Below, in pieces: positions 61,903 to 62,150 of a stretch of DNA of 64,000 nt. Positions within the stretch are counted from its first letter, which is position 1. The number at the start of each line of letters is the position of its first letter. The position numbers and the translations under genes were made by a program. The notes under the pieces are model-generated. The model was given only the letters and a program-made list of their open reading frames with translations, was not told where the DNA came from and searched no databases. Origin of the DNA: Shigella phage Silverhawkium; sequence record MK562505, one strand, 5' to 3'.

Positions 61903-62150
61903 ATTAAATCTTTGTAGAGAACTGCTAAGACGCCAAAGCAACAATGGTATCAAATGCCTTAACAATTCTCTAAAAAGACCTATTGGCCTTTGCATAGTCT
62001 TGCTTAATCCGGTGACTAGAACCTTTGGAGAGCTTGATACTATCTCTTCTCCGTGACACCTACTAGGTGCTTTCTCAACATCGTGTACGCCAATACACGG
62101 AGGGAAACCTAACGCAACATTCGAACGGAGCGCGGCTTTAAATCTTATTA

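Follow-up and report, generated by a model that had tools for sequence, protein, structure and literature searches.

A spacer in the tRNA gene array of a Felix O1-like phage appears to encode a small RNA related to the mRNA-like part of tmRNA

Do the long spacers in the tRNA gene array of Shigella phage Silverhawkium encode small RNAs that are not tRNAs and, if so, of which kind? The window analyzed here, 64,000 nucleotides from sequence record MK562505, is part of a Felix O1-like phage genome and contains 24 tRNA genes identified by ARAGORN, every one of them on the minus strand, spanning 59546-63896. A preliminary description had pointed out four gaps in this array, here called A (61903-62150), B (62337-62502), C (62579-62824) and D (63059-63247), as containing local hairpins but neither a tRNA nor a convincing open reading frame (ORF), and had proposed them as candidates for small stable RNAs. 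In phages T4 and T5, non-tRNA RNAs of ~120-250 nt, namely the T4 species 1 and 2 RNAs (rnaC/rnaD) and the T5 stable RNAs, are encoded between tRNA genes; they are co-transcribed with the tRNAs and freed by tRNA-processing enzymes, and their function is unknown. The gaps were described correctly: ARAGORN calls no tRNA inside any of them, and their longest ORFs comprise 20-53 amino acids, several overlapping tRNA genes. Two of the gap edges rest on tRNA-like sequences that ARAGORN did not call (62254-62336 and 63254-63317). The two quoted hairpins, catgttctggaaaacatg at 62398-62415 and ttgactctttcaagtcaa at 62441-62458, exist as well. Compared with dinucleotide shuffles, the minus-strand folds of gaps A, B and D reach modest z-scores of -1.9, -2.1 and -2.4, respectively, and therefore local hairpins by themselves barely exceed chance. 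For gap C the z-score is -4.6, and none of 200 dinucleotide shuffles folds equally well. The true signal is conservation and covariation rather than local hairpins. The idea of small RNAs other than tRNAs is borne out for gap C and plausible for gap A; gap D is poorly conserved, and the four spacers probably differ in function from each other. A sequence or structural relationship of the T4 and T5 RNAs to the spacers was not found.

An Rfam scan of the whole array (E <= 1), a check recommended in the preliminary description, returned tRNAs and sub-threshold tmRNA matches and nothing else; ribozymes, GOLLD/ROOL, Y RNA and 6S RNA were without a match. The matches in gap C were exclusively to tmRNA families and all under the gathering scores, the best being tmRNA_permuted (RF04321) with 34.7 bits against a threshold of 47, followed by RF01849 with 20.3 bits (threshold 50) and RF00023, which matched in fragments alone with 11 and 8.8 bits (threshold 47). 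The gap C RNA aligns with nt 67-124 of E. coli ssrA. Its sequence points to an origin in the mRNA-like half of tmRNA, and the tRNA-like domain is lacking. The preliminary description had missed this tmRNA-like nature, while its idea of a candidate RNA was right for gap C.

Read along the minus strand, gap C (about 62578-62824) consists of a sigma70-type promoter, the RNA, a 16-bp hairpin and tRNA-Arg, and we predict that it encodes a small RNA of ~165-200 nt (62776 to ~62615 without the terminal hairpin) with its own promoter. The predicted promoter (62782..62810; -35 box TTGACA at 62810-62805, -10 box TAAGAT at 62787-62782, 17-nt spacer) scored 10/12 in the promoter scan and would function as such at a position directly abutting the 5' motif of the RNA. 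Of 97 distinct upstream regions taken from several phage families, 32 carry the arrangement TTGACA-N16/17-TAnnnT at the corresponding place, 0-12 nt upstream of GUUUUC. The RNA begins with a 5' domain (62749..62776) that is proposed to be antisense to host tmRNA on the basis of its complementarity to E. coli ssrA. The mRNA-like module (62695..62740) was recognized by alignment and by ARAGORN with relaxed settings, and the Rfam tmRNA_permuted match covers the same stretch. An A-rich leader, AAAAAUAAAU (62740-62731), is followed by the resume codon GCA (62730-62728); this codon opens a tag ORF of 10 codons for ANDNVFLAVA, which is closed by two stop codons (62730-62695). The analogue of tmRNA helix 5 is a helix around the stop codon (62683..62712), in which CUGG (62712-62709) pairs with CCAG (62686-62683). 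Downstream of it, pseudoknot A (62650..62682) is formed by stem 1, CAGGG/CCCUG (62682-62678 with 62667-62663), and stem 2, in which the loop CCAA (62673-62670) pairs with the downstream UUGG (62653-62650). Pseudoknot B (62616..62649), with the conserved loop AUUAAUAAA, is formed by CGUACU/GGUAUG (62649-62644 with 62636-62631) as stem 1 and GCCCAC/GUGGGC (62642-62637 with 62621-62616) as stem 2. The terminal hairpin of 16 bp, AUCUUUAAGGGUUUUC-UAAG-AGAGCCUUUAAAGAU (62581..62615), which is present in the MFE and centroid folds and in the list of inverted repeats, ends 3 nt upstream of tRNA-Arg(UCU) at 62577-62502 and is probably the 3' boundary of the RNA or an element that would serve in its processing. 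It aligns with long hairpins flanking the core in copies from other phages (<=20 bp) and appears to be a short form of them; copies of the RNA in other phages finish in intrinsic terminators.

The helix around the stop codon and the two pseudoknots are supported by covariation. The stop-codon helix covaries between CUGG/CCAG and CUGA/UCAG, and all four pairs are changed on both sides in the family. Pseudoknot A occurs with at least seven variants of stem 1 and five of stem 2, all of which are still paired, and in alignment A1 every cell of both stems is paired. Compensatory variants are also present in pseudoknot B, where RNAalifold and the pair counts concur. For the five helices together, 95.6% of the cells are paired and compensatory double changes were found in 18 of 23 pairs; 110 cells are changed on both sides compared with 29.6 +/- 5.4 after shuffling (0/500 shuffles reach 110). 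When the 3' partners are slid by 1-3 columns, pairing drops to 30-46%.

The tag ORF is under coding-type constraint. The family contains 36 distinct ORF sequences and 21 peptide variants, ANDDVVLMAA being another example; every one consists of 10 codons and a stop, follows the pattern AN[DE]....[AV]A and ends with UAA, UAG or UGA, all three of which occur. Mean entropies at codon positions 1, 2 and 3 are 0.64, 0.56 and 1.09, so that the third position is the most variable, and the final codon is invariably GCN with all four synonymous forms present. AUAAAU and the GCA resume codon after it show no variation among the 30 members aligned, whereby U(-5) and A(-4) are retained. From this pattern the tag ORF appears to be decoded. 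In E. coli tmRNA, the determinants of the frame upstream of the resume codon are U85 and A86 (PMC2481249).

With tmRNA (RF00023) the gap C RNA shares the A-rich leader, U(-5) and A(-4), the GCA resume codon, a tag of 10 codons starting with AND or ANE and ending with [AV]A, and a stop codon located in a helix and followed by H-type pseudoknots, of which there are two small ones compared with three after the tag in E. coli tmRNA. Unlike tmRNA, it has no acceptor stem, no T arm and no CCA, and therefore it should be neither charged nor bound by EF-Tu and SmpB in the manner of tmRNA. It further differs from tmRNA by its 5' domain, predicted to be antisense to host tmRNA, and by its probable origin, either from its own sigma70 promoter or by excision from longer phage transcripts. 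Two-piece tmRNAs are known from alpha-proteobacteria, cyanobacteria and others; both of their pieces come from one permuted gene, the coding one beginning with the 5' acceptor strand, and they join via the acceptor stem and helix 2. The gap C RNA resembles these molecules (RF01849, RF01850, RF04321) in being a coding RNA separate from the 3' half of a tRNA-like domain, its resume and tag-start sequence is near-identical to that of tmRNA_permuted, and a base-paired complex of two RNAs is proposed here for the gap C RNA and host tmRNA. In contrast to two-piece tmRNAs, there is no acceptor piece for the gap C RNA, and none is encoded upstream of it; its proposed partner is the mRNA-like region of an intact host tmRNA. 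Mycobacteriophage DS6A encodes a tmRNA consisting of the tRNA-like domain only, which was suggested to interfere with trans-translation of the host (tmRNA Website; PMC4131195). Both are phage-borne partial tmRNA derivatives, but the DS6A molecule keeps the tRNA-like half without the message, whereas the gap C RNA keeps the message without the tRNA-like half.

How widely is the element distributed? The preliminary description had named a lack of discrete transcripts and of conservation beyond the flanking tRNAs as refuting its idea, and gap C passes the conservation part of this test, being found across unrelated phage families. A BLAST search for distant relatives yielded 632 phage records, of which ~380 are outside the Felix O1 group and belong to Schitoviridae, Ackermannviridae, T5-like phages, ~46-kb siphophages and Sashavirus. 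Homologues are carried by N4-like, Vi1-like, T5-like and siphoviral phages and also by SSU5-like phage-plasmids and by lambdoid prophages; in the prophages, the element is part of the leader of the late operon, with Q on one side and the lysis genes on the other. Matches were found in 376 of 5426 E. coli genomes and in 739 plasmids, mostly non-mobilizable and of ~110 kb. A profile built from 25 members outside the Ounavirinae has a single match in the window, at 62776-62616 on the minus strand (E = 1.7e-32). When one genome of each bacterial species was scanned for the pattern, just 6 matches appeared, mostly in Enterobacterales, and therefore the element is phage-borne and not a host gene. 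None of 60 sampled Felixounavirus-type records annotates an RNA at the element, and some GenBank records give a 'hypothetical protein' there. In the searchable literature we came across no relevant report of an RNA directed against tmRNA or of a tmRNA mimic in phages, and a search there for expression data was negative. To our knowledge, tmRNA is universal in bacteria. It has already been surveyed exhaustively. Among phages, tmRNA was previously believed to occur in no more than a few mycobacteriophages and in Bacillus phage G, the full tmRNAs being those of cluster C mycobacteriophages and phage G, and an enterobacterial phage tmRNA was not part of that survey (PMC4131195). A tmRNA relative restricted to the mRNA-like part is now found in hundreds of well-studied enterobacterial phages.

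The 5' ~30 nt of the gap C RNA are complementary to nt ~75-108 of E. coli tmRNA, a region that includes the 3' edge of pseudoknot 1, U85/A86, the resume codon and tag codons 1-6. In the window, UAGUUUUCGU (62776-62767) is the exact complement of ssrA nt 97-106, and GCGUCUAUUUU (62759-62749) complements nt 80-90 with one mismatch. The duplex of the window copy with ssrA nt 80-107 is predicted at -23.4 kcal/mol compared with -12.2 for its own equivalent region, and 0 of 60 shuffled targets equal it; against the whole of ssrA, the 5' domain does no better than sequence shuffles (z = -0.7). Complementarity was measured by a search for the longest complement and by duplex folding of short segments, with E. 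coli K-12 ssrA as the only duplex target. Of 49 representatives, 45 have their longest Watson-Crick match to E. coli ssrA between the 5' motif and nt 96-108, and the direction in which the match extends varies by lineage yet always follows the host ssrA sequence. Predicted duplexes of the 49 representatives with ssrA nt 73-110 have -22 to -36 kcal/mol. In 48 of the 49 all 60 shuffled targets are outdone; the summed energy is -1431 compared with -641 +/- 101, and in 49 of 49 the host target is preferred over the RNA's own equivalent region (means -28.0 and -13.9 kcal/mol), the representatives sharing kinship and hence being non-independent tests. The lineage variants of the second helix, GCGACU, GCGGCUGUUUUU, GUGAUUAUUUUU and GCGUCUAUUUU, keep the pairing via G-U wobbles. 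Gaps A, B, D and E show complementarity to ssrA at chance level alone, 7-9 nt. Against E. coli K-12 ssrA, the 5' domain can accordingly be described as a predicted conserved, accessible seed whose flanking variation preserves pairing. In S. Typhimurium the tag is ANDETYALAA (PMC12493166); it differs at codon 5, and therefore the seed would need a mismatch or bulge there. The same seed is nonetheless present in many Salmonella phages. Variants of the seed in the family are UAG-, AGG- and UGG-UUUUCG; E. coli and Klebsiella have ANDENYALAA as their tag, and ssrA is tolerant of tag changes. AgvB and AsxR of EHEC prophages are known phage- or prophage-encoded, trans-acting 'anti-sRNA' RNAs. Like these, the gap C RNA has a 5' single-stranded conserved seed complementary to a host non-coding RNA; unlike them, its proposed target is tmRNA and not an Hfq-dependent sRNA, and it adds a tag template and pseudoknots.

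We propose, giving the idea an even chance, that the gap C RNA pairs with host tmRNA and thereby masks or replaces its tag template. The RNA would be transcribed by host RNA polymerase, and its 3' end would be set by the terminal hairpin and by the RNase P cut at the adjoining tRNA-Arg. It would then anneal to host tmRNA so that the host tag template is masked. Because the strands of a duplex are antiparallel, the phage strand would exit beside host pseudoknot 1, where the phage leader and resume codon would occupy the place of those of the host, and rescued ribosomes may append ANDNVFLAVA and not ANDENYALAA. In a wider form, which we consider doubtful and put forward only tentatively, many phages of Enterobacterales, virulent as well as temperate, would contribute a parasitic coding piece that turns host tmRNA into a hybrid two-piece molecule, so that ribosome rescue goes on while the phage tag replaces the ANDENYALAA degron. 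We know of no description of a viral reprogramming of a host quality-control RNA via template substitution and of no mechanism by which a tag template acts in trans via pairing to the mRNA-like region of the host. Several points speak for caution. A translating ribosome can unwind a 10-bp seed, and masking may therefore be leaky; several phage tags end with -AA and might stay degrons, so that the benefit to the phage could be uncertain; and some of the complementarity could be a remnant of an ancestral inverted duplication. If the proposal is true, it describes a new kind of host takeover in which trans-translation is interfered with or re-templated, it helps to explain the effects of trans-translation on the growth of some phages, and it offers a natural tool to retarget tmRNA tagging.

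Other explanations share part of this evidence. The gap C RNA might act as a decoy that titrates a binding factor such as ribosomal protein S1, the SmpB tail or RNase R and is neither paired nor translated, which we consider unlikely. The resume-region sequence and pseudoknot architecture are kept while the tRNA-like domain is absent, as such a decoy would have it, and a molecule consisting of the tRNA-like domain only was reported to inhibit tmRNA by titration of SmpB, so that partial mimics can be inhibitors (PMC4131195). However, a decoy needs neither an exact frame of 10 codons nor stop codons that are always kept yet interchangeable nor an excess of variation at third positions, and it leaves unexplained why the 5' domain complements ssrA nt 75-108 in a manner specific to the lineage. 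That complementarity, strong, conserved and centered on the host resume codon and U85/A86, is accounted for if the 5' domain blocks or destabilizes host tmRNA by antisense pairing, with the tag-like ORF being no more than a remnant of its ancestry or a structural scaffold. Base-pairing near the resume codon was proposed to block the ligand that sets the frame in the discussion of the A86C mutant (PMC2481249). The coding-type constraint on the ORF, with at least 36 variants in several unrelated phage families, is hard to fit with a remnant, and blocked rescue without a template would strand ribosomes that the phage needs too; we therefore regard purely antisense action as distinctly unlikely.

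A self-sufficient phage tmRNA, one-piece or permuted two-piece, with the tRNA-like domain provided by neighboring sequence, would be suggested by ARAGORN, which calls no tmRNA in the window at default settings but a permuted tmRNA at -ps90, reporting with the lowered threshold the resume consensus and the tag ANDNVFLAVA with two stops, and which calls a tmRNA by default in the close relative L110. The genome announcements of Moogle and Felix O1 also report an ssrA found by ARAGORN (PMC4319497, PMC4392139). In the ARAGORN calls inspected, the halves of the tRNA domain are stitched together from genuine neighboring tRNA genes (the T arm of tRNA-Lys) and the promoter region and are spread across 470-750 nt. 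When aligned to the permuted Rfam model, the element shows deletions in place of the acceptor pairs, and its supposed T arm belongs to a genuine tRNA-Ile (63.4 bits as tRNA); no Rfam tmRNA model reaches its gathering score. A search for a tRNA-like domain upstream, downstream and in longer homologues found T-arm matches that are either real neighboring tRNAs or optional inserts; the latter lie in the long flanking hairpins and are missing from the siphophage copies. The siphophage loci L001, L003, L008 and L010 are free of tRNAs in the surrounding +/-2.5 kb and of T-arm motifs between -900 and +1300. Mushroom, said to lack the ssrA gene, has the element at 90% identity (H240). This case and the borrowed tRNA halves show that the ARAGORN tmRNA calls depend on neighboring tRNAs and not on the element; a self-sufficient tmRNA is very unlikely, and the annotation, in which a tmRNA is at present called or not according to the adjoining tRNA genes, would be corrected if the proposal is true. 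Hardly credible, finally, is that the element is not an RNA gene but a small protein gene, a cis-regulatory leader or the relic of a captured ssrA fragment. It is true that a plus-strand ORF of 42 amino acids (62614-62742) coincides with the conserved block, that the 'hypothetical protein' of some GenBank records is annotated there and that the element of lambdoid prophages is located in a leader. On the minus strand, compensatory changes maintain five helices, two pseudoknots among them. The alternative AUG frame has anywhere from 5 to 12 codons, the GCA frame always 10. The small-protein readings, namely the plus-strand ORF and the minus-strand frames starting with AUG (MQT...), were rejected, as their lengths vary and the covariation is on the minus strand. 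A leader or relic is difficult to reconcile with the many genomic contexts and the own promoter or terminator of the element.

Gap A (61903..62150, minus strand) contains, according to alignment and consensus fold, a candidate for a structured spacer RNA. Like gap C, it is located between minus-strand tRNAs and has no conserved ORF. Read from 5' to 3', a variable hairpin (62139-62105) and a small one (62099-62082) precede a near-invariant block of ~87 nt (62073-61987). Next come a weak hairpin resembling a terminator (61991-61972) and a ~26-bp stem, which pairs 61982-61957 with 61930-61905 and stops 2 nt short of tRNA-Leu. The fraction of invariant columns is 0.90 in the center compared with 0.36 and 0.54 in the flanks, and the helices flanking the central block vary in a compensatory fashion. 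An ORF of 29 amino acids within the invariant block was rejected, its C-terminus being altered by an indel in relatives. Gap A is present in 253 phage records, exclusively of the Felixounavirus type and in none annotated as RNA; outside this group, no homologue was found with an nhmmer profile against ~130 loci, in phages by a BLAST search for distant relatives or in E. coli genomes by BLAST. No Rfam match was obtained in gap A, and the promoter scan called no promoter of its own. It is reasonable to regard gap A as a candidate for a stable RNA or a processing element, freed from the tRNA precursor most likely through the processing of tRNA ends and perhaps also through RNase III acting on the ~26-bp stem. 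The analogy to the stable RNAs of T4 and T5, drawn in the preliminary description, fits gap A; the gap C RNA differs from those RNAs by its own promoter and its tmRNA ancestry. Somewhat short of an even chance is that gap A is a mere processing spacer that guides the maturation of tRNA-Ser and tRNA-Leu and yields no functional stable product. The position of the ~26-bp stem against the 5' end of tRNA-Leu, the lack of a called promoter and the confinement of homologues to Felixounavirus-type phages are consistent with this. Against it, the ~87-nt center is conserved like the tRNAs (90% invariant columns), which goes beyond the needs of a simple cleavage site. Spacers of phage tRNA arrays warrant systematic screening for non-coding RNAs.

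In gap B, relatives share 91-96% identity over the 3' part (62338..62435, minus strand); the 66 nt at the 5' side are ~76% identical or unalignable. These 66 nt and much of gap D are variable filler. The hairpins that the preliminary description had cited in gap B are not its key features, and one of them is located within the variable stretch; the other folds on the minus strand as CAUGUUUUCCAGAACAUG (62415-62398). On the same strand there is a weak promoter-like site, TTGACA-N17-TAAGCT (-35 at 62377-62372, -10 at 62354-62349), embedded in an 8-bp inverted repeat; it was not called by the scan because its -10 box matches 3 of 6 positions. Gap B is more plausibly interpreted as a conserved site with the features of a weak promoter or a hairpin.

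Degenerate tRNA-like genes flank gaps B and D. Next to gap B, a tRNA-Trp(CCA)-like gene (62254..62336, minus strand), uncalled by ARAGORN and read from the sequence, has a 7-bp acceptor stem AUGGGAC/GUCCCAU, the discriminator G, an encoded CCA and a T arm; its anticodon loop CUCCAAA is closed by a C-A mismatch. It has a weak Rfam match of 21.5 bits to tRNA-Sec and is 88-99% conserved in relatives. The gap D spacer (63059..63253, minus strand) contains a 21-nt inverted repeat (63063-63083 with 63187-63207), and outside the closest relatives just ~80 nt of it align, with ~80% identity. It is bordered by a truncated tRNA-like element (63254..63317, minus strand), which ARAGORN does not call and which matches the Rfam tRNA model with 35.5 bits (gathering score 29). 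This element retains a T arm, GAAGG-UUCGAUU-CCUUC, as well as an arm that resembles an anticodon arm and carries the loop CUGGUAA, but a convincing acceptor or D arm is absent; it is conserved to 93-96% in relatives.

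All 24 tRNA genes called by ARAGORN lie on the minus strand, in an array that takes up the final 4.5 kb of the window. The phage is Felix O1-like (Ounavirinae); it is most similar to Shigella phages Sf18 and Sf13 and to Moogle/Michonne-type Citrobacter phages (92-96% identity), and about 200 Felixounavirus records match at 80-90%. In the preliminary description, four spacers of the array, gaps A (61903-62150), B (62337-62502), C (62579-62824) and D (63059-63247), were described as free of tRNAs and convincing ORFs and were proposed to encode small stable RNAs. Indeed, ARAGORN finds no tRNA in them, their ORFs span merely 20-53 aa, and both hairpins quoted there are present in the sequence. 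The proposal is supported in part: it becomes much more specific for gap C and is reasonable for gap A. Against shuffled sequences, the fold energy of gap C is clearly low (z = -4.6); gaps A, B and D do not stand out (z about -2).

Gap C appears to hold a widespread, almost undescribed phage RNA family derived from tmRNA. In distant BLAST searches, about 160 nt of the gap (62776-62615, minus strand; the element) align at 70-82% identity with numerous phages that are not related to Felix O1, namely N4-like Schitoviridae, Vi1-like Ackermannviridae, T5-like phages, Sashavirus, Erwinia Kolesnikvirus and siphophages of about 46-50 kb that infect Klebsiella, Escherichia and Shigella. A profile made from 25 members, all outside Ounavirinae, matches the window copy (62776-62616, minus strand) with E = 1.7e-32 and has no second match anywhere in the 64 kb. 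Of 5426 complete E. coli genomes, 376 carry the element; so do 739 plasmids, most of them non-mobilizable and around 110 kb. In one E. coli lambdoid prophage (L011:5700-5830) the Q antiterminator and the lysis genes (holin) flank the element, and a pR'-like promoter with a short terminated leader, resembling the pR'/tR' unit, lies upstream of it; in Stx phages, this slot is the place of tRNAs and toxin genes. The matching DNA of other phages is intergenic and unannotated, and in a sample of 60 Felixounavirus-type records an RNA was never annotated at the element. Exact pattern matches in records of two non-enterobacterial organisms, a Flavobacterium sp. A45 contig (L137) and an Advenella MAG contig (L133), may represent contaminating phage contigs instead of true hosts.

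Whether the window copy or the copies of ten other phages are scanned, Rfam matches the element only to tmRNA families, always below the gathering score. The element can be aligned with nt 67-124 of E. coli ssrA, the gene of the host tmRNA. In the element alignment, AUAAAU directly followed by GCAAAYGA is invariant and opens a short frame closing with UAA. The window frame reads GCA AAC GAU AAU GUU UUU CUG GCA GUA GCU UAA UAG (ANDNVFLAVA and two stops), and with its threshold relaxed ARAGORN also gives the resume consensus together with the same tag and both stops; the E. coli tmRNA tag is ANDENYALAA. Across 130 loci the tag ORF occurs in 36 distinct sequences and 21 peptide variants, all with exactly 10 codons before the stop, for which UAA, UAG and UGA are each used. 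Entropy at codon positions 1, 2 and 3 is 0.64, 0.56 and 1.09, the third being about twice as variable, and all four synonymous forms of the last Ala codon occur. Judged from these sequences, the fixed length, the third-position variability and the synonymous Ala codons are the signature of a decoded frame. Upstream of the resume codon, U(-5) and A(-4) are retained and equal E. coli U85 and A86, of which A86 is the main determinant of tmRNA frame choice (PMC2481249).

Downstream of the tag ORF, five helices are supported by covariation on the minus strand: one encloses the stop codon at the downstream end of the ORF, two form pseudoknot A, in which a hairpin loop pairs with downstream sequence, and two form the H-type pseudoknot B with a conserved AUUAAUAA loop. 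Compensatory variants include CCGA/UCGG, CCAA/UUGG and CCAG/CUGG in one stem and CGCACU/GGUGUG, CGUACU/GGUAUG, CGCAUU/GAUGUG and CGCAGU/GCUGUG in another. In an alignment of 30 sequences, 95.6% of helix cells are paired and 18 of 23 pairs show double changes; cells changed on both sides number 110 against 29.6 +/- 5.4 in shuffles (0 of 500 as high), while slid controls reach merely 30-46% pairing. By these comparative counts, the element is a real, selected minus-strand RNA structure.

A sigma70-type promoter, TTGACA-N17-TAAGAT, is predicted at 62810-62782 (minus strand) and stops 5 nt short of the conserved 5' motif UAGUUUUCG. Of 97 distinct upstream regions, drawn from several families, 32 share this layout, with a perfect TTGACA and a 17-nt spacer, and intrinsic terminators close longer versions of the element. 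Full RNA length appears to range from a predicted ~280 nt (L002) to ~610 nt (L010). Long hairpins with up to 20 perfect bp flank the core in other phages (L001, L006, L007, L010 and L011; e.g. L010:2673-2790, L011:6160-6270). They are built on CACAAC-A-GGUAAGAGCAUUG ... CAGUGCUCUUUCC-GUUGUG, with variable inserts that include a T-arm-like GGCGGUUCGACUCCGC in some, and resemble either RNase III sites or optional tRNA-like modules. In the Ackermannviridae Det7 and UPM2146 (L004:2255-2322, L006:2257-2325), an unannotated tRNA-like sequence about 120 nt upstream of the core has an acceptor stem, D arm and T arm, without anticodon stem or encoded CCA; a promoter, TTGTCA-N16/17-TATAGT, separates it from the core.

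While the element shares the mRNA-like features of bacterial tmRNA, it is without a tRNA-like domain and was not filed as a tmRNA. Around the element in four siphophage loci (L001, L003, L008, L010), neither a tRNA within 2.5 kb nor a nearby T-arm motif is present. In the ARAGORN 'tmRNA' calls inspected, a default call in a relative (L110) and a sub-threshold permuted call in the window, the tRNA-domain halves are pieces of genuine neighbouring tRNA genes. ARAGORN-based presence or absence of tmRNA in Felix O1-like phages is thus dependent on neighbouring tRNA genes. This borrowing explains the statements of two genome announcements: one reports ssrA for Moogle, a second attributes it to Felix O1 and describes Mushroom as lacking it (PMC4319497, PMC4392139). 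Contrary to that published absence, Mushroom has the element at 90% identity (NC_041923.1 63870-64044). A 2014 census lists phage tmRNAs solely in mycobacteriophages and Bacillus phage G (PMC4131195).

Within tag codons 3-6, E. coli ssrA contains the exact reverse complement (nt 97-106) of the invariant 5' motif UAGUUUUCGU. With E. coli K-12 ssrA as the only target and 49 mutually related representatives, this match is the longest complementarity between both RNAs in 45 of them, and lineage variants at its edges always extend along the host sequence (AGUUUUCGUC, UAGUUUUCGUC, CGUAGUUUUCGU, GUAGUUUUC). Host nt ~79-91 (AAAAAAUAGUCGC), where U85, A86 and the first part of the resume codon lie, pair with a second segment of the phage RNA; its pairing sequence is GCGACU, GCGUCUAUUUU (window), GCGGCUGUUUUU or GUGAUUAUUUUU depending on lineage, and its A-to-G and C-to-U changes retain pairing through G-U wobbles, as read from the sequences. 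Duplexes with ssrA nt 73-110 are predicted at -22 to -36 kcal/mol; for 48 of 49 representatives, none of the 60 shuffled targets did as well. In 49 of 49, the predicted pairing is about two-fold stronger than with the equivalent region of the RNA itself. Against sequence shuffles over the whole ssrA, the window's own duplex is unexceptional (z = -0.7). The Salmonella tag, ANDETYALAA, differs from that of E. coli at codon 5 (PMC12493166).

From the complementarity and the duplex energies we infer that the RNA may anneal to host tmRNA in the cell, which would mask the host template. Given the antiparallel orientation of the duplex, the phage strand would leave it beside host pseudoknot 1, and the phage leader and resume codon could take the positions of the host's. 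Annealing with such template substitution would explain why an RNA free of a tRNA-like domain retains a translatable tag, and gives gap C a specific, testable proposed mode of action.

Gap A recurs in 253 phage records, without exception Felixounavirus-type and none with an RNA annotation there, and has no homologue among the other loci searched or in E. coli. Its centre (62073-61987) is near-invariant, with 90% invariant columns compared with 36% and 54% in the flanks, and its 5' hairpin varies in sequence while its form is kept. Alignment and consensus folding define a minus-strand stem of ~26 bp (61982-61957 with 61930-61905) that terminates 2 nt before tRNA-Leu, with one fully compensatory pair, several half-compensatory ones and zero disruptions. 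A promoter scan found none of its own in gap A. It is a reasonable candidate for a stable RNA, comparable to those known from the T4 tRNA cluster, or else an elaborate processing spacer.

In gap B, the first 66 nt are variable and contain one of the two quoted hairpins; the last 98 nt (62435-62338) contain the other and are conserved at 91-96%. The latter also hold an inverted repeat that encloses a weak TTGACA-N17-TAAGCT site; a minus-strand tRNA-Trp(CCA)-like gene (62254-62336) follows closely downstream, at the gap border. Missed by ARAGORN and nearly overlooked by Rfam, this gene was read from the sequence: its 7-bp acceptor stem is perfect, CCA is encoded, and a C-A mismatch closes the anticodon loop CUCCAAA. 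The gene is conserved at 88-99% among relatives, and no other tRNA-Trp occurs in the window's array. The hairpin region 62403-62418 (UCUCAUGUUUUCCAGA on the RNA) is complementary at 15 of 16 positions to the anticodon arm of the phage tRNA-Phe (60502-60517), at the edge of chance by a rough count (~0.1 expected in the region).

Gap D can be aligned only in part outside the closest relatives. It is bordered by a truncated tRNA-like element (63254-63317, minus strand), also missed by ARAGORN, which has a T arm and an anticodon-like arm (loop CUGGUAA), lacks acceptor and D arms and is kept at 93-96% in Felixounavirus relatives. It lies directly downstream of one copy of the 18-nt motif GAAGRCCNNNTACARCAA, which occurs four times on the minus strand within the last 700 nt (63313-63330, 63400-63417, 63794-63811, 63957-63974; 0.54 expected by chance, 0 of 100 shuffles reaching four). 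Three copies are preceded by TTTACA or TTGACA, and the related CTGAAGACCGTAACAAAT lies in a highly conserved 95-nt gap (61403-61497); the motif may serve tRNA sub-clusters as a promoter or regulator site specific to the phage.

An 80-aa ORF inside the array (60990-61232, minus strand), Cys-rich and basic, looks like a recent insertion, since its DNA is limited, among the fetched loci, to the two closest relatives (L101, L110). A 265-aa ORF (59723-60520) lies between tRNA-Ser and tRNA-Phe. AU-rich minus-strand hairpins on CUUUAAAG...CUUUAAGG adjoin tRNA genes at 60634-60664, 62581-62615 and 63420-63460 and may be a shared processing or termination signal of the array.
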